Position numbers and translations under genes: made by a program. From an uncultured Bacteroidales bacterium (GTDB taxonomy: Bacteria; Bacteroidota; Bacteroidia; Bacteroidales; UBA11471): a stretch of DNA of 64,000 nt. Where the stretch lies: the NCBI GenBank assembly GCA_947589325.1, contig CANQAM010000002.1:39415-103414 (forward strand), written 5' to 3'. Numbering within the stretch: position 1 is the stretch's first letter; each line of letters starts with the position of its first letter. The notes below the pieces were generated by a model, which worked only from the letters and a program-made list of their open reading frames with translations, did not search any database and was not told the origin of the DNA. This document shows positions 5,079 through 63,560 of this stretch, in pieces.

Positions 5079-7337
5079 TTATTTTCGAAGAATCACTTTT
5101 TCTCCCTCTACAATGTAGAAGCCTTGCGGCAGCACGGTGGATATCTCTTTATAAGGTATCTGCCGGCGGACGCACTGTCCGGCGATGTTGTAGACATCGA
5201 CGAGACGGTCGGGGTCTTTGGGCGTTGCCGCAATCTCCTCGACGGCACTGGTGCCGATGTTGCGCACCGTCAGGATAAGCGATACCGCCACTTGGTTGTC
5301 TCCCGAGAATCGCAACAGAAACGAACCTTTCAACGGCGTTTCGAGTTCTATCGTGTGGGCGGCGCTGTTCGGAGTTCCTTTTCGCGACGGGAATACATAT
5401 CGAGTGTTATCGTACACGTTCTCTCCCAGTTGTTGCAGGTAGGAAGTGCCGTTGTCGTTATTGCAGCAACCTTCTATTTTTATGGAGACCACTTCTTTCC
5501 CGTCGGGTATGTTCACGTAAAAATCGATGTTGCGCGAATATTTTACCGTTGAGCCGCTTTTGGCGTAGGCTTTGTTATCGTTGTTGGTGATGAAGTAGCC
5601 GTCGTCGAAGTTCCAGCGGGTACCCTCCGAGCCGGTGGCGGTCGAGGCGGAGATTTCCACCTCTGTGGCTTCGGTCGATGAGGAGGAGTCTATCTTCTTG
5701 CCGAGCAGCTCGCCGCCGGAGGTGCAGCCCTCCATGATGTCGGCGACAAGGCTGTTCATATAGACTTCGAGCATGGTGTAGCCGCTGTCGTCGAGGGTGT
5801 TGCCGTCGGCGGGGTCGGCGGGATCAAGCCCCTTCTCTGTTTCCCATTCGTCGGGCATACCGTCGCGGTCGGTGTCGGCGCGTGCGGGCAGCGATTCCAA
5901 TTCAGGCCATGGGCTCGCGGCGCCCGGAGCGCGGCATTCGTTCTGCGTGTCGATGAAGCCATTGGTGCCGTAGGTAGCTGTTTTGTTGCGTGTGTCGGAT
6001 ACCATGACGGCATCGAGTGCGTCGCGTGCGTGACACGCGCCTACATACTCCAATACTTTCTCATACGCTACGTCGGGGGTGTGCGTCGTCGTGGCAATGA
6101 ACTCTATCGGCTCGCCGATGCGCATCGAGTCTTTGGTGCCTTGCGTGTAGGTGGAATCTACGCCGGAACCGTTACTTATCTGGGCGTAGATGCCTTTCGT
6201 CCAGTTATCTTGCGTAACTTCATTGTTACCCACGATTTTGTTTCCGTCCACGAAATATTTTCCCCACATATGCAGGGCAGGTTTCCAATTGTTCCATGAA
6301 ACAGTCACCGTCTTACCGTCTACGTCGATGGTGTTGGCGGCCATGTCTATTTCGTATTTCGTTCCACCGATGGTTACGTAATTTTTCGTTCCGTCGGAAG
6401 AACCGGATACGTTATTCTCATCATACGGAGTGTTTGCCACCTTGTTGTAATTGCTTGCAGTCGTTTTCTTGTCGAGGCAGTAATCAACCGTCCTGATGCC
6501 CGGCGAGGCGATGCGGTAAGCTATGGCTTTGGTGCCGGTGGCGGGACCGGGCTTGTAGTAATTGTTCACCATGTTCACGTTCATGGCTTCGCCGCCGTAG
6601 CAGCCGTTGACTGCCCAGTTGTAAATCACGTTGTTGCGCATATCCATGCGCTCGTCGAGCTGCGTCGAAGGACGCGGACCCAGACGCGGCGTGCGGCTCT
6701 CGTGGTGGCATATCAGGTTGTGGTGATACGATGCGCCGCTGCCGCCCCAGTTGCCGCCGTAGCCGTGTTTGCCTTTGCTGTGCCCTGAGTTGCGCAGACT
6801 TTGCGATGCGATGCACCACTGCACGGTGATGTTTGTCGAACCATAGACCGAGAGACATTCGTCGATGCTCCAGCTTACCGAGCAGTGATCGACCATGATG
6901 TCCCTTTGATCCATGCCGCCCAGCCCGTCGCCTTCGTGGTAGGCTACGTTTTTGTTGCCGAGACGGAAGCGCAGGAAGCGTATGATGACGTTGTTGGCGC
7001 TGATGGTAAAGGGATAGCCCGCGATGCAGATGCCGTCGCCCGGGGCGGTCTGCCCCGCGATGGTTACATTGCCGTTTTTCAGGGCAAGTGCCGATTCCAG
7101 AAATATCGTGCCCGATACGTCGAATACGATGGTACGTTTACCCGATTTTTCGATTGCCCAACGGAACGAGCCGTCGCCGCTATCGTTGAGATTGGTTACA
7201 TGATACACCGCACCGCCGCGTCCGCCGGTAATGTAGCGTGCAAAACCTTCGGCACCCGGAAATGCCGGCAGATCTTCATCGGCATGTACGGTGAAGAACG
7301 ATAAGAGACAACCGAAAAACAGAATTGTTTTTTTCAT
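5079..7337 (-). CDS. Pectate lyase, polysaccharide lyase family 1, with T9SS C-terminal sorting domain
   Basis: The ORF track starts at 7388; I prefer the internal ATG at 7337 (MKKTILFFGCLLSFFTVHA signal peptide). PL1 beta-helix motifs: IMVDHCSVSWSIDE and HHESRTPRLG. Ca-binding-like DTDRDGMPDEWE. The C-terminus ...VDVYNIAGQCV...GFYIVEGEKVILRK resembles a T9SS type-A CTD. Confidence 0.85.
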   Translation of the reverse strand: MKKTILFFGCLLSFFTVHADEDLPAFPGAEGFARYITGGRGGAVYHVTNLNDSGDGSFRWAIEKSGKRTIVFDVSGTIFLESALALKNGNVTIAGQTAPGDGICIAGYPFTISANNVIIRFLRFRLGNKNVAYHEGDGLGGMDQRDIMVDHCSVSWSIDECLSVYGSTNITVQWCIASQSLRNSGHSKGKHGYGGNWGGSGASYHHNLICHHESRTPRLGPRPSTQLDERMDMRNNVIYNWAVNGCYGGEAMNVNMVNNYYKPGPATGTKAIAYRIASPGIRTVDYCLDKKTTASNYNKVANTPYDENNVSGSSDGTKNYVTIGGTKYEIDMAANTIDVDGKTVTVSWNNWKPALHMWGKYFVDGNKIVGNNEVTQDNWTKGIYAQISNGSGVDSTYTQGTKDSMRIGEPIEFIATTTHTPDVAYEKVLEYVGACHARDALDAVMVSDTRNKTATYGTNGFIDTQNECRAPGAASPWPELESLPARADTDRDGMPDEWETEKGLDPADPADGNTLDDSGYTMLEVYMNSLVADIMEGCTSGGELLGKKIDSSSSTEATEVEISASTATGSEGTRWNFDDGYFITNNDNKAYAKSGSTVKYSRNIDFYVNIPDGKEVVSIKIEGCCNNDNGTSYLQQLGENVYDNTRYVFPSRKGTPNSAAHTIELETPLKGSFLLRFSGDNQVAVSLILTVRNIGTSAVEEIAATPKDPDRLVDVYNIAGQCVRRQIPYKEISTVLPQGFYIVEGEKVILRK

Positions 7338-7553: not shown

Positions 7554-10500
7554 TTATTCTTTGATATATACCGACGGCGATTTGCCGGTTATCTTTTTGA
7601 AACTGCGGCTGAAATATTTGGGGTCGGCATATCCGACTTTGTAGGCGACTTCGGCAATCGAGAAGTTTCGCGACTGCATCAGCTGTATGGCGCGTTTGAT
7701 GCGTATGGTTTTCAGGAAGTTGATAGGCGACTGTCCCACCAACGCTTTGATTTTCCGGAAGAACACGCTGCGGCTGAGCGCCATTTCCCGCGCCAGATCA
7801 TCGACACTCAGGTCGGAGTTGTCGAGGTTGTCATCGACGTATGCGAGGAGTTTCTGCATGAATTGTTCGTCGGCGGGCATGATGGAGAGTTCGGGCAGTT
7901 GGTAACCCGTTTCGCCGGCGGAGTTTTGTCCGAGTCGTTCCATGTATTTTTCACGCAGGAGCTGCTGTTGCTGCTGTATCATGGCTACGCGGGCTTTGAG
8001 CAGCTGGGTGCTGAACGGTTTTACCATATAGTCGGCAATGCCGCTGTTGGCACCGCGAATGCGGTCGTCGAGCGTGGCTTTGGCAGTCAGCACGATAATG
8101 GGAATGTGACAGGTCGTGGCGTTGGCCTTTATGCGGTCGATAAGTCCGAATCCGTCGAGTTCGGGCATCATCAGGTCGGTAATCACCAAGTCGGGCATAT
8201 ATTCGAGCGTCCGTGTCCAGCCCTCTTCGCCGTTGCAGGCGGTATAGATTTTGTAGTTGCGGCACAGGCTGTTTTGCAGGAATGCGCGCAGGTCGCGGTT
8301 GTCTTCGACGATGAGAATGATGAAGCGGTCGTCGGCATCGGTGCCGTCGGCTTCTGCGGCGATTTCTTTTTCGTCGTCGGCCTCACTGTCGTTCAGTAGA
8401 AATTCGGCTTGCGCATCTTTTTCGAAGTGGTCTTTCCCCGTGAGGAATGCCACCTCGAACGTGCTGCCTTCGCCTGTACGGCTGTGGACGGCGATTTCGG
8501 CATGATGCAATTCCGCGAGCTGTTTGACCAACGACAGCCCGATGCCCGTCGATTGCTTGTAGATGTTGTTTTGCAGTATGGTGTCGAAGCGTTGGAACAG
8601 CGTCTCGATTTTGGCGGGCGGTATGCCTACTCCCTTGTCGTGCACGGCGATGACGATGCGGTCGTCTTTCCGCGCCGCCTCTACCGTTACCGACTTGCCT
8701 GCCGGCGTGTATTTGAAGGCGTTGGACAGAAGGTTGATGAAAATTTTTTCGAATTTGTCTTTATCCGCCCATACGTACATATTGTCGGGCCCCATTTCGA
8801 GACGGAAGTCGATTTTATTCATGCGGGCGATGTTGTCGAAGTTCTCCATGATGCTCTCCAACTCTTCCCGCACATTGAGCTTCTCGACCAGCAGGCGCAT
8901 TTTCTCGTTCTGGATTTTCCGGAAATCGAGAATCTGGTTGATGAGGTTCAACATACGGTGGGCATTGGTTTGTACGACTGTCAGGTATTCTTTGTCCTGT
9001 TCGGGCAGTTTTTCGTCTTCCAACACCTCCGAGAGCGGCCCTTCGATGAGGGTGAGCGGCGTGCGCAGCTCGTGCGAAATGTCGGTGAAGAATCGGAGTT
9101 TCGCTTCCGTGAGCTGCTGCTCCACCCGCAGGCGGTAGCGCAATTTGTAAATATGCAGATAGATGAATACGATGATGCTAATCAGCACGATAGCGAGTAC
9201 GATATAAAGACATATCGCATACGGCGTTTCGGCAAACGCCGGTTGGCGCGAAACGGGGAGCGTCCGTTCGTTATCGACCCAAAGCCCGTTGCGGTTGGTG
9301 GATTTCACCCGCAGTTTGAAATCTCCGGCCGGAAGATTGATGTAATTGGCTGTCAGGTTGTCGGAGGTGATAGTCCACTCTTTGTCCACACCTTCCAATT
9401 TGTAGGCGTACCTGATGGCGGCATCGGAAGAGAAATCGACGGCCACGAAGGGCACGGACAAGGTCCTTTCGGTCGCTTTCAGGTGTATTGCCTCTATCCC
9501 GTTTCCGAATATAATGGCGGGAATGTAGTCGTTGTCGTCTATCTTGTCGGGTTCGACCATCGCCACGCCCGTGCCGGTGGACACGAGCAGTTTCCCGTCG
9601 GGATAGATGTAGGGCTTGTTTTCCGACAGAGTGGTATAGCGTGGGAATATGTCGTTTCCGAAATTCTCGAAATTTTCGTTTCGGGGATTGAACCGCATCA
9701 GCAGCCGCTCGGAGAGCACCCAGATGTAGCCGTTGCGGTCTTCGGTAACGTTGAGCGCCACATCGGAGTAGGCGCCCGCCTGTTTGGTATAGGACTTGAA
9801 ACGGATATTGTCGGAAAGCAAATTCGGGGAGAGGATTTTATTCAGCCCGCCGCCGAATGCCGCCACGTATATATCGCCGTTTTCAGCCACTTCTATGCCC
9901 ATGACATCGTTCCCGCCCAGACTGTGCTCATCGTCTTTTTGCCGCACGTTGCAGTAGAAAAAGAGGTCTTCGGGTTGATAGAAATTTTCGTCGAATGTGA
10001 AAAGTCCCTGTGTGGTGCCGACGAGAATCACGCCGTCGTCGGTTTCCGCTATGCAGCGCACCTGTTTGGGCTTGCTGCCCGAGCGCAGCGCCAACCGGTT
10101 GTGTTCATGGAAAAACAGCGGTGCCGGGTCGTTGGGCGATTCTATCATGTTCAGTCCGAAATCGTAGCACCCGACCCAGATGTGCCCGTTTTTGTCCTGC
10201 AAGATTGCATATACGGCATCGCCGCTGAGGCTGTACGGTTTGTGTCCGTCGGGCTTGAAGTGTCCCGTAATGCGGTATCGGTGCGGGTCGGCATAACGCA
10301 TTCGGTAGAGCCCTTCGCCTTTTGTCCCCACCCACAGGTTGTGGTCTTTGTCTTCCAACATGGTGTAAATGCCGGCGCTGAACAGCGTTTGTTCCGATAC
10401 GATTCGTCCGTCGGGCGAGAGGTAGCCTATTCGTTTGCCGCCTTCCCGTATCTCCACCATGCCGTCGCGCGTCGAAATCCACATGCGTCCTGCCGAATCG

Positions 10501-54986: not shown

Positions 54987-55484
54987 ATGAAATCCATTAT
55001 TGTTTTGTCATTAATGCTATTTGCTGCGTCGTTTTCTTATGCCGACGATTATGCACGGTATTTTGAATGCGCGGACAAGAACGACGTTCAGGGAATGATT
55101 GATAGTTTATTATCCAGAGGCACACGCCAGTATAATCTCAAAGAAATTCGCAAGCGTAATGCAGACAGCGATCATATCATAGATTATATTTATCTCGGAG
55201 CCAATGCCGATTTTCCCGATAGCGTAAAACTGTTCGTCGAAGTCAATTTCTTTATGAAAGACGCAAATCCTGATATGAATATAACAGGAACACCGGTATA
55301 TAAAATAAATTCTATCGTCGGCGAATATCTGGACGTGTTACCTATATACCAGATTGTATCTCCGGAAACAACCGCAGAAAGCGCTGTTCGATACGGAGCC
55401 AATACAGATGTGCCCGATTCTCCTTATAAAGTCCGTTACAGTATTCGGAAATCATCGGCCGGTTGGAGATTCCGCCGTTTTTGA
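54987..55484 (+). CDS. Secreted protein of unknown function (prophage moron)
   Basis: 165 aa with signal peptide MKSIIVLSLMLFAASFSYA. It has its own promoter box and is AT-richer than its neighbours. It lies between convergent operons. Confidence 0.65.
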   Translation: MKSIIVLSLMLFAASFSYADDYARYFECADKNDVQGMIDSLLSRGTRQYNLKEIRKRNADSDHIIDYIYLGANADFPDSVKLFVEVNFFMKDANPDMNITGTPVYKINSIVGEYLDVLPIYQIVSPETTAESAVRYGANTDVPDSPYKVRYSIRKSSAGWRFRRF

Positions 55485-55496
55485 GGTACTCGGTTG

Positions 55497-55979
55497 CTAA
55501 TGGTTTAATGACAATTTAATACTGCCGGACTTCATGCTTGGAGGCATGGCAGTCGTGTCCTGTGCATTAGTGACGAATCGCTCGACGCTCTCCATCAGTT
55601 CGGCGTGGTCGTGATTGGTGGCCGATGTGGTCAGTTGGAAGCCGGCAAAGTTGTCGCCCCGCAACCCCTGCATGGCGGTGTCGATGCGTTCGATCAGGTC
55701 GAAAAATACCAATGCTTCCGGCATTTTCCGGTCGGTGTGTCCGTGCGTCGCCACGGCCCGCGTTACGATGTGCAGCCGCACGGCCACGTCGCCGCGGCGC
55801 GCTCCGTTGTTCTGTTGCCGCCACTCTATCTCCTCGAACTCGACAAATACGGCCGGCATCGGCCATACCGCGCCGCCGTTCAGTGCGGCGACATTGTTGT
55901 TCCACAGGTCGATGAATTGAATATCCGGCACGCACGCGGCGAGACGTGCGCAAATGGCTTGAAAGATTTGTTTTCTCAT
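55497..55979 (-). CDS. Virion structural protein, possibly head-tail joining / neck
   Basis: 160 aa. Last gene of the minus-strand late block, with a 4-nt ATGA overlap with the gpG-like gene. No motif recognised with confidence. Confidence 0.5.
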   Translation of the reverse strand: MRKQIFQAICARLAACVPDIQFIDLWNNNVAALNGGAVWPMPAVFVEFEEIEWRQQNNGARRGDVAVRLHIVTRAVATHGHTDRKMPEALVFFDLIERIDTAMQGLRGDNFAGFQLTTSATNHDHAELMESVERFVTNAQDTTAMPPSMKSGSIKLSLNH

Positions 55980-56434
55980 TTTCGTATGAATTTTGTAAGT
56001 TGCCCATTGAAGTCGGCGAGATTGTCCTCGATGATCCCTTTGATAATCTCCTGCGTACGTTTGCCGTCGCCCACGAACTGGCGCTTCGGCATGTTGAATT
56101 TGCGCGTGTGCGCCTTTACCGTGTACGGCTTCCCCTTTTTACTGGTGCGGGTATGTTGGCGCACAGACTTTGTCCCGCTGCCACCTTCATTATGAATAGC
56201 AGCGTATGGCACGGCCGAGGAGAAGCGCACGCCGTCGCCTCTTACTTCGGTCTTTATGCTGCGCCGCATCGTGCCCGTTACCATCAGCAGCGAGCCTTTG
56301 GGATATTTATAGGCCCGGGGCTTCCACTTGTCGGTAAAAAAGGCCTTGCGCTCGAAGTTGCGGTCGAACTCCTCGGAGAGTTCCACGCGCATGTCGTTCA
56401 ATATGTTTCTTTTCAGTTGTTCCCCGTCTATCAT
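55976..56434 (-). CDS. Mu gpG-like virion morphogenesis protein
   Basis: 152 aa. VPYAAIHNEGGSG and FNMPKRQFVG correspond to the YAAIHQFGG / MPARPFL motifs of the Mu G family. Confidence 0.75.
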   Translation of the reverse strand: MIDGEQLKRNILNDMRVELSEEFDRNFERKAFFTDKWKPRAYKYPKGSLLMVTGTMRRSIKTEVRGDGVRFSSAVPYAAIHNEGGSGTKSVRQHTRTSKKGKPYTVKAHTRKFNMPKRQFVGDGKRTQEIIKGIIEDNLADFNGQLTKFIRK

Positions 56435-56476
56435 TTTAATTATCGTTTAATTGTTGGTAATTCAAAAAAATAGTTG

Positions 56477-56484
56477 TAAATTTG
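56477..56484 (+). promoter_or_regulatory. Bacteroidetes -7 box (TAAATTTG) directly upstream of the 78-aa ORF
   Basis: Exact TAnnTTTG match ending 4 nt before ATG 56489, which implies a leaderless or near-leaderless transcript. Confidence 0.45.
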
Positions 56485-56488
56485 CGAT

Positions 56489-56725
56489 ATGGTAAAAATT
56501 ATAGATAAAATAGAAGAATGCCCTTATATGTGTGAGCACTGCAAGCACTTTAAGCAAGGACATACTTGTTTGGCTTTTGACAACATACCATTAAGCATTT
56601 TGCTTGATGCAGAAAGCCATACAACGGTATTGCCTGAACAAAAAGGCGCTTATGTCTTTGAGCCGGCAAAGCCCCGTGATACCATGCGTGTTTATGTGGA
56701 CGGTGCCGAAGAACCGGAATATTGA
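56489..56725 (+). CDS. 78-aa Cys/His-rich protein, antisense to the late operon
   Basis: MVKIIDKIEECPYMCEHCKHFKQGHTCLAF... It has its own promoter box and lies in AT-rich DNA. Its 3' end overlaps the MuF-protease stop by 34 nt (convergent). Confidence 0.55.
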   Translation: MVKIIDKIEECPYMCEHCKHFKQGHTCLAFDNIPLSILLDAESHTTVLPEQKGAYVFEPAKPRDTMRVYVDGAEEPEY

Positions 56726-58245
56726 TACTTTTCTGCATATAGTTTTTTAATTATAGTTCCAACCGCAACCGCAATAGGTCGCGGTTTTTCATTATTTAGA
56801 TACTCAGACCAAGCCTCAGCAATAAATTCAGCTGCGTTTTTATGTCCGTAGGAGGACAAGTTCTCCGTAATATGCGCTTTGCCTTTTGACATTTCCTCAT
56901 TATATATTTTGAGGAAATCCTTGTGAGTACGAAGTCCGATAAGTCGGTCAATTTCGTGCCCGAGTTCGTGGTCAAAAACAGCTTTCAATGTACCGGTTCC
57001 AAGTGGATGCCCTTTTGCCTGCACATCCTCTTCAAGCGACTTGTCTATTTTTTCACCTTTCCATGATGTATTGAAGCAAATGCCAGATAACCCCCAATCC
57101 TTAAATGCGCCATGAGAATAGGCATAAGTGTTTTTGCCTGCCCTTACTTTCATGCGGGTAATCCACCGGCTTACTTCTTTTTTCAACACTTCGTCCCCAA
57201 ATTTTGCATAATATGGGTCTGCCTTCAGTTCTGCAAGTTTGCGCTCGGAAAGTAGTTTAATGCGCCCAAGTATAGTGCCGACGAATAGTGTCTCTTTTTT
57301 TAATTCGGGGAAACATTGGAAATGCCTTTCCACACTCCTGAAAATGCTTTCTATTTGGTTCATGTTACTTTTATTAAATCCGGTCAAAGAGCATTTGACA
57401 CCCAATTTATCGCAAAAGAATTGTTCGGCTTCCTCGATTGTTTTTGGCGTCCATTCCGCAGGGGTATAGCCATTAATAGCTTGTTTCACCTGTTCGGGGT
57501 CCGGGCATTTGTAGTACGGGTGCTTTGGCGGAAAAAGTTGTAGCGACTTTCCGGCATTATAGCGAAATATAGACCCTTTTTTCCCGCCTGTACAGTCTTC
57601 GCCGAGCCGCATGGCGGTTTCGGGATTGGAAAGGGGGTATTTGTTTTTGCGCACCTGCACGGTCGTACAGCGGCAGTTCCATCCGTTGGGTGGGAGAAAC
57701 ATCGACCAGAACGGGTCGTCAGGCGGCAGGGTTATGCCGTTCAATGCGGCGTGTTCCTCGCGCACGCGGTCGTCGCCGGCCGTCCGGTATTGCAAGTCGT
57801 AACGGTCGCCGTCCTGCTCGAAGTCGTGCCATTTGGCTGCCATTTGCGACGCACCGACAGCATGGTTGTATTCCGCGTACAGGTAGTTATGGTTGTACTT
57901 GGCATTTATCTTCCGCACGTCGGTCAGGAAGTCGTCGAACGGTTTGATGTCGCCTTTGTCGGTCAGCAGCGACAGGCCCACTTCACGCAGGGCGTGGTAT
58001 GTTTTGAAGCCGGAAAAGACGAAAGCGTTATTTTCGAGCGCGTAGCGAATCGTCTCGGGAACTTCTGTCGGCAGTTTGCTGTTTATGGCAGTCTGCAATA
58101 TCCGTAAGGTCTCTTCGATGAGCGCTCTCGACTCGGAAGCTGCCAGTTGGTCGGGGGTGAAGCCCTGACTGTCGTAAACGGTCTGTGCCGCCTCCTCGAA
58201 GAGGGAGTCGTCGAAGTCGAACGGGCGGTCCTTATCCGCCAGCAA
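56692..58245 (-). CDS. MuF/SPP1-gp7-family head morphogenesis protein fused to a C-terminal anthrax-LF-like zinc metalloprotease domain; start uncertain
   Basis: The reading frame is open from 58992, but there is no in-frame ATG between 58944 and 57843. The first plausible independent start is TTG 58245; alternatively it is entered by a -1 shift from the portal frame at 58341-58335. MuF motifs: YRTAGDDRVREEHAALNG and PPNGWNCRCT. C-terminal motifs: HELGH (56956-70) and NLSSYGHKNAAEFIAEAW. Confidence 0.8.
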   Translation of the reverse strand: MLADKDRPFDFDDSLFEEAAQTVYDSQGFTPDQLAASESRALIEETLRILQTAINSKLPTEVPETIRYALENNAFVFSGFKTYHALREVGLSLLTDKGDIKPFDDFLTDVRKINAKYNHNYLYAEYNHAVGASQMAAKWHDFEQDGDRYDLQYRTAGDDRVREEHAALNGITLPPDDPFWSMFLPPNGWNCRCTTVQVRKNKYPLSNPETAMRLGEDCTGGKKGSIFRYNAGKSLQLFPPKHPYYKCPDPEQVKQAINGYTPAEWTPKTIEEAEQFFCDKLGVKCSLTGFNKSNMNQIESIFRSVERHFQCFPELKKETLFVGTILGRIKLLSERKLAELKADPYYAKFGDEVLKKEVSRWITRMKVRAGKNTYAYSHGAFKDWGLSGICFNTSWKGEKIDKSLEEDVQAKGHPLGTGTLKAVFDHELGHEIDRLIGLRTHKDFLKIYNEEMSKGKAHITENLSSYGHKNAAEFIAEAWSEYLNNEKPRPIAVAVGTIIKKLYAEKYQYSGSSAPST

Positions 58246-58306
58246 AAGCAGATTTTTGCCGTATAACGACTCGACGGCGGTATGGAACGCAGCGTATTTG
58301 TCGCGC

Positions 58307-58341
58307 AGCCCCTCGCAGTCGGAGGGGCTTAATCGAAAAAA
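58307..58341 (-). other. Candidate -1 programmed ribosomal frameshift signal (slippery heptamer, spacer, stem-loop)
   Basis: On the minus strand: U UUU UUC (58341-58335) in the portal frame, a 5-nt spacer GAUUA, and a stem AGCCCCUC (58329-22) / GAGGGGCU (58314-07) with a 7-nt loop. The -1 frame is the MuF frame. Confidence 0.55.
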
Positions 58342-59573
58342 GAGTCGGGTTGTGTTTTCGCCTGTCGCGTACCGGTGATGGGAATGTTGTACCGATCGAC
58401 GAAATACTGCGCGTCGATCTCGAAATATTCGAGCAAAAGGCGCTCCTCTTCCCGTAGTTCGGCCGGGGTGAAAGAGGCGGCATCGTCCCACCGGAACGCG
58501 AGGCCCCGCACGGGGAAGCCGTGCTGCACCATGAGCGGCAGGAGCCGGCCGTTGATGACGTTTGCCAGCATTTTGGCGTCGGCCTTGACGACATCGTCGA
58601 AAATTTCGAGGTGCGTCTCCGACTGCGAGAGCGACGAACCGCTGTCTATCGTCATTGTTTGCATCAGAATGCCTTTGGAGAGCTCGCTGTTGCACCGGTC
58701 CACACGTTTGTCGTACACGTTGTAGGCATCGCCCCTGCTGCTTTCCTTTATTTCGATGTCCGTTCCTTCTGGGAACAAAGCCCAGAAAGCAGCACCCATT
58801 TTGTCGAGCGCGGTTTCGATGCGCCGACGCTCGGCCTCGTCGGTCGTATTGGTACGGGCCACCCGCATGGGCGCCCCGAATATTTCGCCGAACATGTCCC
58901 AGAAAGCAAGCATGTTTTTTTTGCTGATGCAGGCAGGCGCGCATTTGAGGAGCAGGCCCAAATCTTTGGGCTTGCCCACTTCGACGCACCACAGGGCGAA
59001 ATCGCCCTCGCGGTACGGTATGCCTGTGCGCCAGTCGGCAGACGGGTCAGGGGTGATGACGCCGTATTCGGGGCATACGTGTTTGCGCGGGACGAGCTCG
59101 ACACCGTCGAAGCACATGCCGTTTTCGTCGGTTACGACATCGCCCAACTGGATCAGGCTGTGCCCCCAATAGCGGCTGTCCAAGGCAAGGTCGCAGAAAT
59201 CGCCAAACCACTCTTTTTGCAACAATTTCGTGGCCTCGGCGTTTTCTTTTCCGTCCTTGCCTACCAGCCGAAAATCTTTCTGCAACACTTTCCCTTTGCG
59301 CTGGCCGATGCAGCCTGTGAGATGCAGATCGAGCAAACAGTCTGCATAAATATCGTAGAGGCGTCCCCTGTTGGGAGTGTCCGCACTGATGGCGGCCTGA
59401 TGAGCCTGCCGCCACGTTGCAATATCCTTTTTGGTAAGGCTGTCGGTTTGCTGCAAGAGCTGCGCGGTCAGTTTTACCCCCTGCCGGCTTTTGGCGAAAC
59501 GCATCAGCCTGTCCATATCTGCCGCCGGAGTGTGGCGGTCGAAAAGCTGTTTTATACTGCTTATGAAGTCCAT
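58329..59573 (-). CDS. Portal protein (DUF935 / Mu gp29 family)
   Basis: 414 aa. It lies between the terminase and MuF genes. Overall resemblance to gp29-type portals (…WRTGIPYREGDFALW…MRVARTNTTDEAERRRIE…). Confidence 0.8.
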   Translation of the reverse strand: MDFISSIKQLFDRHTPAADMDRLMRFAKSRQGVKLTAQLLQQTDSLTKKDIATWRQAHQAAISADTPNRGRLYDIYADCLLDLHLTGCIGQRKGKVLQKDFRLVGKDGKENAEATKLLQKEWFGDFCDLALDSRYWGHSLIQLGDVVTDENGMCFDGVELVPRKHVCPEYGVITPDPSADWRTGIPYREGDFALWCVEVGKPKDLGLLLKCAPACISKKNMLAFWDMFGEIFGAPMRVARTNTTDEAERRRIETALDKMGAAFWALFPEGTDIEIKESSRGDAYNVYDKRVDRCNSELSKGILMQTMTIDSGSSLSQSETHLEIFDDVVKADAKMLANVINGRLLPLMVQHGFPVRGLAFRWDDAASFTPAELREEERLLLEYFEIDAQYFVDRYNIPITGTRQAKTQPDSFFD

Positions 59574-59637
59574 TTAATTGTTGGTTAAAGAACGTTTAAC
59601 TTCGTATGAAATGCCGGCTGCAGCCGGTAGTCTGGCA

Positions 59638-60057
59638 TTAATAATCGTATTTGTTGGGCGGCATCGAGCCGTAGCGCACGGGGTTGTGCGCGTCCGTTTC
59701 GCCGCCCTCGCCCGTATAGGTAGGCAGGTCGGGCGATGCCTTGGAGCTTTGCACGTCGCGCAGCCACTGAATGGCGTCCTTGTAGAGGCATTCACGCCGC
59801 TCGTGTCCCATATTCTGCGGCAGCCGGTGGATCATCAGCCAAAGGGTGATGTTTACCGCACATTGCACGAGAAACGGATTCCGCTCGTGACCCTGTGCAG
59901 CAAAAGCCGCCTGCATATCGTACCGGTGGCGGGTATAGCTGCATATCTGTTCTATTGCCGCCTGTTCTGCGGCGAGCCGCTCGGAGGTGTTTGCACACAG
60001 CTGCTCCAGCTCGAACTCATCGCATACGCTTTTATAGTCTTCTTCTGTCAAAAACAT
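59638..60057 (-). CDS. DUF1320 / Mu gp36-like head protein
   Basis: 139 aa. MFLTEEDYKSV...IEQICSYTRHRYD...NPFLVQCAVNITLWLMIHRL pattern. Confidence 0.6.
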   Translation of the reverse strand: MFLTEEDYKSVCDEFELEQLCANTSERLAAEQAAIEQICSYTRHRYDMQAAFAAQGHERNPFLVQCAVNITLWLMIHRLPQNMGHERRECLYKDAIQWLRDVQSSKASPDLPTYTGEGGETDAHNPVRYGSMPPNKYDY

Positions 60058-60305
60058 GGTCGTCGGTTTTTAGGGTATGCTACATATATCGCGCGTTTCA
60101 TGGCCTCTGCGGAGGTGAAACTTTTTACAAAACGGCGCTGCCGTATCAGATTTTTTATTCCCTGCATGGAGACCGCGACAGGTTTGCCGTCGAATACGAT
60201 CACCAAGTACTTTTTTCCGTACCGTGCGGCGTGGCGCGTCGCTTTTTTCGTGGCGCGTCGCAGCCGCCACTCAAACACCAGTGTCTTAAATAACTTTTTT
60301 ACCAT
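60048..60305 (-). CDS. Hypothetical small basic phage protein
   Basis: ATG 60305 (MVKKLFKTLVFEWRLRRATKK...). It overlaps the TerL stop by 7 nt and the next gene's start by 10 nt. Confidence 0.5.
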   Translation of the reverse strand: MVKKLFKTLVFEWRLRRATKKATRHAARYGKKYLVIVFDGKPVAVSMQGIKNLIRQRRFVKSFTSAEAMKRAIYVAYPKNRRPCF

Positions 60306-61843
60306 AATATGTTTTTTGCATTGTTCCGCCTGCCAAAAGACGGAGTGAAACTGCTGATACGGGTATCGCGCTGCAGGTACCATATCGCGCCCTCGTCGGC
60401 ATCGGGCGCATCATCGTGGCCGCGCATACCCCGTTCAAATGCGAGTGTCTGTTCTATCCCCGCCTGCATGTCGGGGTCGTCTTTTTCCGTCTCGTTGTAG
60501 GTTACGAAACCGCGCTCCCACAGGGGGCTTATCGCCTCGATACGCTGAAACTTGTCGGGCTTCTTGCGTTTGTCCGCACTGATTGGCAGCTGGTAGCCGC
60601 GCAAATCGCCTTCGCGTCGGAACTCGTCGAGGATGGTGTCTTGCATGAAATTGGCCTCCATATACCATTTGATGGCGATACCCTGCGACTGGCTCCATTC
60701 GTAGAGGTCGTAAAGCCAGCGCACCATTTCGGCGACGCTGCACTGGCGCACAAAGGCTTTGATATGCCACAGTTGCGAACCGGCTTTGCCCCACAACTTG
60801 GCGGCCTTGTAGTCGTTTTTCGTCGTGCCCTTGAAAGACGGGTCGATATACAATACCAGTTCGTCAAACTTTTTCAAATCGGGCATTTTGCCCCACTTTA
60901 TCCAGTCGTTGCGGAACACGGCTCCCTCGGTTATCGGGTTGTTCATATACTCCTTTTGGAAAGAACGATAGCCCTGAAACTGCTCGATGGCTCTCACCTC
61001 TTTGGGTGTCCATTTGGCCGCCCACGACACATTGCCGTTCTTGTCCCAGACATTCACCTGCGAAACGTGCACGCCGTTTGTGGCGGCTATATTGGCCAGC
61101 ACGCTGTTTTTGGATATCAGGTTGCCGACCATGATGAAACGTCCGCGTCCGCCGTCGAGCGCCCCGAAAAGCGCCTCTTTAACCCAGTTTGTCAAGCGGG
61201 TAACGCGGGCGGGGCTTTCGCACAGCTCATCGTCGTCGAGGTCGTCGATGACGATGTAGTCGGGGCGGTGCGAGCGGTAGCGCAGACCGCGCGGCGACTG
61301 CCCGCGGCCTCGTGCGAAGAATGCCGTGCCGTCTTTTGTTACGAACTCGCCCTCCTCCCACGAACCGCCGTTGTACTGCTGCCCGAAGTCGTGGATATAC
61401 CGCTGGTTGAACTGCAACTCCGCCTGAATGTCGGAGAGCAGCGTGTTGGCGTTGTCCTCGCTTTTCCCCACCAGCACCATGACGTTGAGCTGTTTGTTCT
61501 GCTGGCATTTGAGCCATAGCGGAATGAATATGTCCATGTGCGTGGACTTTGCAGCTCCTCGGTGCCATTTGAATACGGCTCTCAGGTTACGATTTTGGAG
61601 AATCTTGCTCGCCGCTTTGATGTGAAACGGCGCGCAGGGCGTCCGCATGCCCGTTTCCGGATTTACGGTGTAGTGCGGAAAATAATAATCGACAAAAGCG
61701 GCATAATCGGCCCGCACGTGTTTAATGCGCAAGGCTTTGTCCTGCAAAGTCTCCGCCGTATTTACGGCCGTAGCGGCCTGTACGGTTTCGCAATGTTTCT
61801 GCCACCTTTCGATGGCGTCTCTCAATATCGCTTTCTGTATCAT
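60299..61843 (-). CDS. Terminase large subunit
   Basis: 514 aa. ATPase Walker A-like WHRGAAKST and Walker B YIVIDDLDDDE. C-terminal nuclease-like half. Confidence 0.88.
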   Translation of the reverse strand: MIQKAILRDAIERWQKHCETVQAATAVNTAETLQDKALRIKHVRADYAAFVDYYFPHYTVNPETGMRTPCAPFHIKAASKILQNRNLRAVFKWHRGAAKSTHMDIFIPLWLKCQQNKQLNVMVLVGKSEDNANTLLSDIQAELQFNQRYIHDFGQQYNGGSWEEGEFVTKDGTAFFARGRGQSPRGLRYRSHRPDYIVIDDLDDDELCESPARVTRLTNWVKEALFGALDGGRGRFIMVGNLISKNSVLANIAATNGVHVSQVNVWDKNGNVSWAAKWTPKEVRAIEQFQGYRSFQKEYMNNPITEGAVFRNDWIKWGKMPDLKKFDELVLYIDPSFKGTTKNDYKAAKLWGKAGSQLWHIKAFVRQCSVAEMVRWLYDLYEWSQSQGIAIKWYMEANFMQDTILDEFRREGDLRGYQLPISADKRKKPDKFQRIEAISPLWERGFVTYNETEKDDPDMQAGIEQTLAFERGMRGHDDAPDADEGAIWYLQRDTRISSFTPSFGRRNNAKNILW

Positions 61844-62576: not shown

Positions 62577-63560
62577 ATGGCAAAAGATGTAATCATTAGC
62601 ACCAGCGGCCTGAACTGTTATGGTGGCCGCGTGCTGACCTCGGGCATCGACCTGACACAGTTCCAGAAAAACCCGCTGCTGTTGTGGATGCACCGCCGTA
62701 GCTTCGAGCGTGATGCAATGCCTATCGGGCGCATCGACAACCTGCGTATCGACGGCGACCGCCTTATCGGCACGCCTGTTTTCGACCAGAACGACGAGTT
62801 TGCCAAAAAAATAGAAAGCAAGTGGGAAAACGGTTTCCTGCGTATGGCTTCAGCGGGACTCTCTATCGTAGAAATAAGCAATGCACCCGAATACCTTTTA
62901 CAAGGGCAAACCCGTGCGACAATCGTACGCAGCCGATTGGAAGAGGTCAGTATCGTCGATATGGGCGGCAATGACGACGCCTTACAATTGTATGACCGCA
63001 GCGGCAAGATGTTGAAGCTCGCCGCTGGCGTGGACAACCCTGTATTGCCGCTGCTTTCGCTCGAAAAGGATTCCGAGGGGACAGACCCTCGCAACGTGGA
63101 AAATCAAACCAATCAAAATCCAAAAAAGATGAATGAAGAAATTTTGAAGCTGCTCGGACTGCCGGACTCGGCTACCGAACAGGAAGCGGTAGGCGCACTT
63201 CGCCTGCTGAAAGAAAACGCCGAGAAAGGGGAAACACTTCGCCTTGCCGGCATTACGGCTGTTGTGGACGCTGCCATTGCCGAAAAACGTATCACGGCGG
63301 ACAAAAAGGAGCATTTCGTGAACCTCGGTAAGACGGCCGGCCTCGACGCGCTGCGCGAGACCCTTTCACTGATGCACCCCGTCAGCAAGCCCACAGAGGT
63401 AATCCGCCAGAAAGACGCGCCGCGTGCCGATGAACCGAAGACCTACGCCAAATTATCTGAGGTGCCGGCCAAACAGGTAGAAGCGCTGCGTATGGAAAAA
63501 CCGCAAGAGTACGAGCGGCTTTACAAAGCCGAATACGGCATTGAAATCCCGAAGAAATAA
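62577..63560 (+). CDS. Prohead protease with C-terminal scaffold region (Mu gpI-like)
   Basis: 327 aa. N-terminal protease-like half (NPLLLWMHR...MPIGRIDNLRIDGDRLIG...MASAGLSIVE). C-terminal helical scaffold-like half (EEILKLLGLPDSATEQEAVGALRLLKENAEK...). Confidence 0.75.
   Translation: MAKDVIISTSGLNCYGGRVLTSGIDLTQFQKNPLLLWMHRRSFERDAMPIGRIDNLRIDGDRLIGTPVFDQNDEFAKKIESKWENGFLRMASAGLSIVEISNAPEYLLQGQTRATIVRSRLEEVSIVDMGGNDDALQLYDRSGKMLKLAAGVDNPVLPLLSLEKDSEGTDPRNVENQTNQNPKKMNEEILKLLGLPDSATEQEAVGALRLLKENAEKGETLRLAGITAVVDAAIAEKRITADKKEHFVNLGKTAGLDALRETLSLMHPVSKPTEVIRQKDAPRADEPKTYAKLSEVPAKQVEALRMEKPQEYERLYKAEYGIEIPKK

Follow-up and report, generated by a model that had tools for sequence, protein, structure and literature searches.

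The window analysed here is a stretch of 64,000 nucleotides (nt) from contig CANQAM010000002.1 of an uncultured gut Bacteroidales bacterium, and it carries a Mu-like prophage. At the 3' end of the prophage's MuF head-protein gene lies a low-GC cassette which encodes a predicted zincin metalloprotease module, distantly resembling the catalytic domain of anthrax lethal factor (LF), and, convergently, a protein of 78 amino acids (aa). From sequence comparison and structure prediction, we propose with a probability of roughly 0.6 that this is an effector/immunity cassette of the polymorphic toxin type, acting in the cytoplasm. Three hallmarks of such systems are found: a constant N-terminal trafficking domain carries exchangeable tails, the toxin domain recurs in a second delivery family, and a small linked gene varies together with it.

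A predicted zincin module at the C-terminus of MuF

The fusion protein is encoded on the minus strand, and the parts that bear on its function are as follows.

56692..58245, minus strand: MuF-zincin fusion gene, 517 aa from TTG 58245 (open reading frame list; Pfam Phage_Mu_F and ATLF)
57661..57900, minus strand: MuF/SPP1-gp7 core domain, aa 116-195 (Pfam PF04233, TIGR01641)
56695..57483, minus strand: M34/lethal-factor-like gluzincin module, aa 255-517 (~262 aa), the putative exchangeable effector domain
56956..56970, minus strand: HELGH zinc-binding/catalytic motif (H426, E427, H430), invariant in 27/27 close and 85/85 distant homologues
56809..56856, minus strand: SSYG...EFIAEAW segment (Y466, E473, E477), from the alignment to LF chains

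The N-terminal part is assigned to MuF by Phage_Mu_F PF04233 (Pfam; E 3.4e-15, 57.2 bits against a cut-off of 29.6 bits) and by TIGR01641 (52.7 bits, cut-off 39.65 bits). Its core motifs are YRTAGDDRVREEHAALNG at 57736-57789 and PPNGWNCRCT at 57664-57693, and the MuF core and zincin region together (aa 144-516) fall in phrog_324 'head morphogenesis' (PHROGs; E 5.9e-107). The original prediction, which was made from the letters of this DNA without database searches, had described MuF hallmarks and, at 56956-56970, the HELGH motif; all are found where it placed them, in one minus-strand open reading frame (ORF) ending at 56692. Its second protease motif, NLSSYGHKNAAEFIAEAW, likewise has the identity and start that it was given, except that the motif occupies 56809-56862 and does not end at 56859.

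That the C-terminal extension is a zincin, as had been proposed, is supported by family, sequence and fold searches. ATLF (PF07737) is the top Pfam match of the module, though below threshold (aa 423-489, E 2.6e-5), and the sole family found besides Phage_Mu_F. A phmmer search against all PDB sequences returned anthrax lethal factor as its sole match, pairing FDHELGHEID.../NLSSYGHKNAAEFIAEAW with FIHEFGHAVD.../NLTSYGRTNEAEFFAEAF of lethal factor; this reproduces the alignment that the original prediction had described, and the motifs that it gave for lethal factor are real. When a profile of an alignment of 27 homologues was run against PDB sequences, the matches were confined to LF, at E 1.3e-3 to 1e-2, and PPEP, at E 0.56.

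In the 27-homologue alignment, H426, E427, H430, Y466, E473, E477 and E481 are invariant, and D433 is nearly so; in the numbering of the module, Y466, E473 and E477 are Y211, E218 and E222. The phmmer alignment pairs H426 with LF H686, E427 with E687, H430 with H690, Y466 with Y728, E473 (43 residues after H430) with E735, and E477 with E739. LF E735 is the third zinc ligand of that enzyme, and LF Y728 is its catalytic tyrosine. H426, E427, H430, Y466 and E473 are kept unchanged in distant representatives too (85 examined).

An AlphaFold2 (AF2) model of the module, built from the same alignment, reaches a pLDDT of 93.8 and a pTM of 0.89. A helical subdomain comes first; behind it the model has three short strands and then two helices, one with HExxH and one with the Glu, in the order of a gluzincin. 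In Foldseek searches of PDB, probabilities above 0.9 were obtained only for lethal factor, PPEP-1/Zmp1 and PPEP-3 (0.95-0.97), and these are the sole meaningful folds matched. The module thus looks like a catalytically intact gluzincin, whose nearest characterised relatives appear to be the M34 peptidases, at a distance. Placement in the polyvalent-protein metallopeptidase clade whose strand 2 ends in a His was also considered and dropped; the conserved His-Pro of the module lies outside a strand in the model.

A convergent partner gene

The cassette is larger than the original prediction had it, since a second, convergent gene at 56489-56725 belongs to it.

56489..56725, plus strand: candidate immunity/inhibitor gene, 78 aa, convergent, overlapping the 3' end of the MuF gene by 34 nt
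56477..56484, plus strand: promoter-like box TAAATTTG, a perfect match to TAnnTTTG, separated by 4 nt from the downstream ATG of the small gene

TAnnTTTG is the Bacteroidetes -7 promoter consensus. In 19 of 21 related loci, among them copies in type VI secretion system (T6SS) loci, the box precedes the start of the small ORF by 12-32 nt, counted from the first base of the box. The intergenic stretch 56435-56488 has 20% GC. The gene itself lies immediately downstream of the zincin, and convergent to it, in 28 of 29 related Bacteroidales-type loci, T6SS loci again included, and its protein sequence is conserved wherever enough of the locus is available.

Homologues of the small protein form 15 clusters of 71-79 aa, with invariant residues that include C15, C18, C27 and H44 (a C-x2-C...C...H pattern). 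No family match was found in Pfam, PHROGs or NCBIfam, and a moderate-confidence model had no PDB fold match in Foldseek. No signal peptide was found in the 78-aa protein; because the partner lacks export signals, the target of the zincin is expected to be cytoplasmic. The small protein and the zincin diverge in step (r=0.91, 190 locus pairs), which is a trend and not a test, since the locus pairs are not independent.

Distant, non-Bacteroidales loci (L030-L043) have a small acidic, co-directional ORF of 49-84 aa after or overlapping the zincin stop, instead of the convergent partner. The acidic ORFs of L034, L037 and L043 (from Treponema, Propionispira and Clostridia) are weakly alike (DEFRxKxKxLGY...). 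They are possibly a second partner or immunity family.

Base composition and exchange of the C-terminal tail

Both genes lie in DNA of a composition different from that of the surrounding prophage.

56435..57600, no strand: low-GC cassette (0.41 GC) comprising the linker, zincin module, small gene and its promoter region; flanking phage DNA has 0.55-0.58 GC

A single-change fit places the GC change-point at 57582 (0.578 to 0.422), and GC at third codon positions changes at codon 215 (~57600) from 0.75 to 0.41. The original prediction had counted GC by hand, and its counts are exact: 0.35, 0.45 and 0.35 in the 60-nt blocks of 56741-56920 and 0.717 in 58501-58560. The cassette also has 0.41-0.43 GC at the T6SS locus L001 and at L009 and L027, where the N-terminal domains have 0.54-0.57. 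Low GC goes with the cassette wherever it is located, including the copy behind a DUF4280 domain of 0.57 GC.

The N-terminal 255 aa of the MuF protein have 3192 homologue clusters, and C-terminal tails were surveyed in the best 120 of these (59-80% identical). Homology to most of the 120 orthologues ends at aa 245-259. At least 10 unrelated tails follow, comprising LPD3 (47), a Zn-ribbon type (36), a third type (15), glutamine deamidase (5), CdiA-CT and several singletons; the zincin tail is present in 0 of these 120 nearest orthologues. Sister MuF genes therefore include some with toxin domains at the same position, namely Gln_amidase (glutamine deamidase) and CdiA_C. Compared with the prophage at L009, the zincin of the window is 85% identical whereas its MuF N-domain is only 65% identical, and at other loci the identities of N-domain and C-module are discordant in the opposite direction. 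Because orthologues carry unrelated tails and the two identities are discordant, the C-terminal tail is exchangeable within this phage group. The suggestion that the module had been swapped in is upheld by the same results, as the C-terminal region is not conserved among orthologous MuF genes.

Copies of the cassette in T6SS loci

In 8 homologue clusters the zincin is fused behind PF14107 DUF4280, which, according to work cited in PMC13402684, is a PAAR-like tip protein of Bacteroidota and Francisella T6SS. At L001-L003, the DUF4280-zincin gene directly follows genes for TssC, two Hcp proteins and VgrG. Zincin homology with these T6SS effectors begins at aa 254-268 of the MuF-zincin protein. 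The MuF fusion of prophage L027 and the T6SS effector P0016 share 80.6% aa identity over the toxin module, and L027 and L001 share 80% DNA identity over 1052 nt that span both the toxin module and the small gene. This 80% match belongs to the L027 prophage; the zincin of the window is only 41-46% identical to the T6SS copies. A co-directional 87-aa ORF after the T6SS effector was considered as the immunity gene and proved to be a mis-call, the conserved gene being on the opposite strand.

Polymorphic toxin systems are defined by just such a use of one toxin/partner unit behind two unrelated delivery domains (PMC3482391). The toxin/effector reading gains support because the module is carried by T6SS PAAR-like effectors and is strictly linked to its partner gene. 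These comparisons show that the two genes move as one unit between phage MuF genes and the DUF4280 effector genes of Bacteroidetes T6SS loci.

A candidate -1 frameshift at the portal/MuF junction

The portal gene lies directly upstream of the MuF gene, and the junction between them carries a candidate recoding signal.

58329..59573, minus strand: Mu-type portal gene (Pfam Portal_Mu, E 1.3e-79)
58335..58341, minus strand: T_TTT_TTC heptamer, in the frame of the portal gene and with a single codon between it and the stop; candidate -1 frameshift site into the MuF frame
58308..58328, minus strand: GC-rich hairpin GCCCCTC-cgactgc-GAGGGGC, beginning right after the portal stop, 6 nt past the heptamer

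The original prediction had started the MuF protein at TTG 58245. This is indeed the first canonical start, but conserved coding sequence runs ~24 codons further upstream in the same frame, as far as the region of the portal stop, with no ATG, GTG or TTG. The conserved N-terminal MuF peptide GLRxxYxAF... starts with Met or Val in some homologues and lacks all three of these start codons in the window, L014, L015, L004 and L009. When six related loci are compared in the MuF frame, the stretch of 21 codons ahead of the first canonical start shows 7 synonymous changes and 1 non-synonymous change.

Junctions were compared at 26 loci (the window, with L004-L028, L051 and L053 among the sites), which represent 20 distinct sequences. 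T_TTT_TTC is kept in 25 of the 26, and L028 has T_TTT_TTT; the portal end always reads xxT TTT TTC xxx STOP, except at one locus with T TTT TTT. The codon before TTT varies (TCT, CGT, GCT, GGT, AGT, AAT) yet ends in T throughout, so that the first position of the heptamer is kept despite amino-acid change. A stem is present at the hairpin position in 20 of 20 distinct sequences and shows covariation (GCCCCTC/GAGGGGC, GCCCCAC/GTGGGGC, GCCGCA/TGCGGC and, at L024, GGGGC/GCCCC); the hairpin folds at -20.5 kcal/mol (z -2.35). Relative to the portal gene, MuF is read in the -1 frame, which is open across the portal stop at all 26 loci. The junction thus has each of the textbook elements of -1 frameshifting: an X_XXY_YYZ heptamer, a 6-nt spacer (5-9 expected), a stable structure and an open -1 frame.

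The same signal also precedes MuF genes with other tails, and portal-MuF fusions as single polypeptides occur in other phages (phrog_35074 matches both proteins, and portal fusions are among the 85 sampled representatives). We infer that the junction is a candidate site of -1 programmed ribosomal frameshifting that would give a portal-MuF(-effector) fusion. No report of a portal/MuF -1 frameshift was found in the literature. If real, it would add a second widespread case of recoding in the structural genes of tailed phages, and it would explain the tethering of MuF cargo to the portal.

A portal-MuF fusion, if real, would need a release step, and the zincin could then be a cis-acting protease that processes MuF, the portal-MuF fusion or other head proteins during assembly or before ejection, with the small gene an unrelated moron or regulator. 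Zincin metallopeptidases in phage-delivered multidomain proteins have been argued to serve as autoprocessing modules (Iyer et al. 2017, PMC5512222), and the widespread fusion architecture described below would fit such a role. However, the closest orthologous MuF proteins lack the domain and bear other tails, yet have the same junction signal; assembly therefore cannot depend on the zincin. Head maturation should not need it either, because the prophage encodes a separate Mu gpI-type head protease (Mu-like_Pro) at 62577-63560 on the plus strand. Moreover, the module is found on a T6SS PAAR-like carrier, where there is no capsid, and the strictly linked, co-diverging partner gene would be left unexplained. 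Given the orthologous phages without the domain, the gpI-type protease and the T6SS carrier, a purely cis-acting role in assembly is quite improbable.

Distribution of the MuF-zincin architecture

A first, word-indexed search for relatives of the module returned 30 clusters. An exhaustive profile search of 1.84 billion cluster representatives yielded far more, with 2577 of them reaching E<=1e-3 and 494 reaching E<=1e-30. The idea that the module is rare was rejected on this basis, and 'rare' applies only to the Bacteroidales subfamily. In the matched proteins, which are ~480-650 aa long, the zincin is nearly always C-terminal. Phage_Mu_F was found in 47 of 85 sampled representatives and Phage_min_cap2 in 9, with a few portal or VG15 fusions; ATLF reached E<1e-3 in only 7 of the 85. 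Fold matches of the module in BFVD are phage entries named 'minor capsid protein', 'lethal factor' and 'MuF-like'. Genome matches come from Bacteroidales (with one 98% match in a metagenome-assembled Bacteroidales genome from rabbit gut), Clostridia, Treponema, Bacillus, Synergistaceae and others, and no near-identical or protein-level matches were found among isolated phage genomes (INPHARED). MuF with zincin is an old, widespread phage architecture that has no Pfam model of its own, and what is specific to the Bacteroidales subfamily is the convergent partner and the exchange with T6SS loci.

Remnants and rearranged copies

L007 (5860-7121) is a prophage remnant, with a tape-measure fragment only, between rpsP, purL and prfA-type housekeeping genes. 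It retains the zincin part (from MuF aa ~165) and the small convergent gene, and this retention suggests selection for the zincin/partner pair, or at least for the partner.

At L029 (4220-4734, 5401-6993), an orphan 103-aa C-terminal stub of the zincin, with HELGH kept, and an intact small gene stand beside a MuF-glutamine-deamidase-like gene. The arrangement is reminiscent of polymorphic toxin loci, where toxin/immunity modules stand displaced as 'orphans'. The database proteins P0026 (383 aa) and P0025 (158 aa) carry the final ~80-100 aa of the zincin next to unrelated sequence, which at the N-terminus of P0026 is aminotransferase-like (PF06838/PF01053); both are probably assembly chimeras.

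Evidence weighed against the effector/immunity reading

Several observations count against reading the cassette as a toxin with its immunity gene. As to the enzyme, the ATLF scores of 24.5 bits (module) and 22.9 bits (full protein) are under the gathering cut-off of 27.4, and the Foldseek scores are weak over the whole module (E 0.02-0.1, TM 0.37-0.52, root-mean-square deviation 8-11 Å). Because ATLF is sub-threshold and Foldseek gives weak E values with TM of 0.4-0.5, membership in M34 is distant at best. The module is too distant to be filed under Pfam ATLF; its predicted mode of action is that of an LF-type zincin, and its family membership is borderline. As to the partner, its family was not detected in the distant non-Bacteroidales MuF-zincin loci, and immunity genes do not usually stand convergent to their toxin genes. 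An immunity role is suggested by linkage and co-divergence only, and the protein can be assigned to no family or fold.

The wide spread of the architecture (2577 representatives; 56 of the 85 sampled with MuF-type N-domains) could also point to a general role in phage biology and not to interbacterial toxicity. The module might then be a host-takeover or anti-defence protease, injected with the DNA, that cleaves a host defence or regulatory protein without inhibiting growth; the small protein would serve superinfection exclusion, acting against the protease of incoming relatives. A general infection function of this kind is suggested by the presence of MuF-type and minor-capsid zincin fusions across phyla, in a large PHROG family. 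It would agree with Iyer et al. 2017 (PMC5512222), who propose that the enzymes fused to MuF serve as effectors and are delivered at an early stage of infection, and with the small gene's own promoter-like element, independent of the late operon. Yet the two-gene unit is also cargo of T6SS PAAR-like effectors, and T6SS cargo is typically toxic to recipients, while the glutamine deamidase and CdiA-CT tails of sister MuF genes are bona fide toxin domains. The T6SS context and these sister tails favour genuine toxicity, and we regard a takeover protease that spares growth as rather unlikely, although it shares both delivery and inhibition mechanism with the toxin reading and the two are not fully exclusive.

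Finally, the MuF-zincin fusion is interrupted near the domain junction in three related metagenomic prophages, by an extra T in a T-run (L004 ~7940-7955), a scaffold N-gap (L005 ~5754-5766) and a 35-nt deletion (L006 ~1229). These interruptions, because of which several database proteins begin at one internal Met, may be assembly errors or may reflect counter-selection of the intact fusion. Taken with the remnants at L007 and L029, they would be expected if the module were an inactive, decaying passenger, that is, a non-functional remnant carried by recombination. One of the three interruptions is, however, a scaffold gap, and no catalytic residue varies among the 27 close and 85 distant homologues. 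Confidence is high along the whole AF2 model, and intact fusions of 524-527 aa occur in many independent gut metagenomes, with the neighbour of P0153 present in 64 collection blocks. A passenger is accordingly a very improbable explanation.

The split at L004-L006, together with five protein clusters that start at one internal Met, had also raised a programmed frameshift between the MuF and protease parts as a candidate. It was rejected, because the three lesions differ and intact 524-527 aa fusions are common.

Proposed function

Under the polymorphic-toxin-type reading that we favour, the constant N-terminal MuF domain would target the protein to the portal region inside the capsid, as in Mu gp30 and SPP1 gp7. 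By analogy with these two proteins and with the MuF-toxin literature (PMC5576092, PMC5512222, PMC11699363), the zincin would be ejected with the DNA into the cytoplasm of the recipient, where it is predicted to cleave a cytoplasmic protein. The role most likely played by the 78-aa protein is that of a cognate inhibitor (immunity protein) in the cytoplasm, and the lysogen would produce it. Expression from its own Bacteroidetes-type promoter, independent of the late operon, would keep the lysogen protected. Some of the MuF-protease may be translated as a fusion of portal and MuF, by means of the candidate -1 frameshift signal.

A more far-reaching picture is possible, and we offer it only tentatively. 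In it, one cassette would link two delivery machines, with an LF-like protease and a new family of small Cys/His inhibitors circulating between the capsids and the T6SS spikes of gut Bacteroidales. Lysogens would gain immunity to T6SS attack by strains with the same module, and a portal-MuF-effector, made partly by an undescribed -1 frameshift, would fix a few copies at the portal vertex.

Of the MuF toxins, which abound in gut phages, only two enzymatic types (Apk2 and Bxa) have been studied, and the protease type, reported to make up about one fifth of MuF toxins, has no characterised member. The present locus offers a clean, testable pair of a 262-aa zincin and a 78-aa partner, for which the T6SS loci independently suggest an effector/immunity unit. 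Identifying the substrate of the zincin would reveal a new target of antibacterial or host-takeover proteases in Bacteroidales, and a partner gene borne by a prophage bears on how gut strains gain immunity to T6SS effectors.

Prophage context

The host element is recognized as a Mu-like prophage from an S24 repressor, a MuB-like ATPase and a GemA-like gene. The gene order of its head module is terminase (60299-61843), an adaptor-like gene (59638-60057), Portal_Mu, MuF and a Mu G-like gene (55976-56434).

The Mu-like head genes stand in divergent blocks, with terminase, portal, MuF and G on the minus strand within 55497-61843 and the gpI-type protease on the plus strand beyond the terminase. 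Such a split order, with a gpI-type protease on the plus strand, is unusual relative to phage Mu. A 165-aa ORF at 54987-55484 (plus strand), with a signal-peptide-like N-terminus (MKSIIVLSLMLFAASFSYA) and AT-rich DNA (0.41 GC), is wedged between the converging early (plus) and late (minus) prophage blocks and has a moron-like appearance; it has no match in Pfam or PHROG.

Comparison with known systems

MuF as a toxin-trafficking domain and an ALF-type metallopeptidase as a toxin module were both described in 2012 (PMC3482391). Like the MuF polymorphic toxins (PMC5576092; Apk2; Bxa, PMC11699363), the fusion in the window has an N-terminal MuF domain encoded after the portal gene of a temperate phage, a variable C-terminal enzymatic domain, a small adjacent gene presumed to confer immunity, and a toxin domain common to other delivery systems. 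Jamet et al. 2017 (PMC5576092) report a metallopeptidase domain in 20% of MuF toxins and place MuF toxins mainly in Firmicutes. The characterised members, in contrast, are (p)ppApp synthetases and an ADP-ribosyltransferase (Bxa of Bacteroides stercoris). A Bacteroidales survey of BxaNT homologues (PMC11699363) contains only ADP-ribosyltransferase, glutamine deamidase and Apk2-like tails and no zincin, and no paper was found on a characterised MuF-zincin or on the 78-aa partner protein. The partner gene of the window also differs from those of known MuF toxins in being convergent, in overlapping the 3' end of the toxin gene and in having its own promoter box.

With the LF catalytic domain, PPEP-1/Zmp1 and PPEP-3 (MEROPS M34), the module shares an HExxH motif and a Glu in an EFxAEA helix at nearly the same spacing (43 residues in the window, 45 in M34), a Tyr in an (S/T)SYG motif, and an Asp three residues after HExxH. 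Sequence similarity is nevertheless limited to ~57 residues, and the helical N-terminal half of the module has no counterpart in these enzymes. Delivery differs as well: the module in the window would be carried by a phage capsid or T6SS, whereas LF and the PPEPs rely on protective antigen or on secretion.

Tox-ALFMetallopeptidase (Zhang et al. 2012, PMC3482391) is likewise an LF-like zincin used as a C-terminal toxin module, and it has been reported in Bacteroidetes among other phyla. The table in that work gives PVC or type II secretion system delivery and Imm-SuFu as the immunity protein, unlike the MuF and T6SS PAAR-like carriers and the unrelated 78-aa Cys/His partner found here. T6SS tip proteins of the DUF4280 (IglG-type) family with C-terminal effectors offer a further parallel, as they carry the zincin and the small gene at L001-L003; the carrier in the window, however, is a phage head protein, with no T6SS genes involved.

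Zincin metallopeptidases of polyvalent proteins (Iyer et al. 2017, PMC5512222) resemble the present module in belonging to proteins that are predicted to be packaged and injected, among which MuF is a hub domain. These are mostly large multi-effector proteins whose metallopeptidase is proposed to cut the polyprotein, whereas the protein in the window consists only of MuF and zincin and has a dedicated partner gene and T6SS copies. Thus, MuF toxins as such are a known class, and what appears to be new at this locus is the predicted protease/partner pair, its sharing with T6SS and the candidate recoding site.

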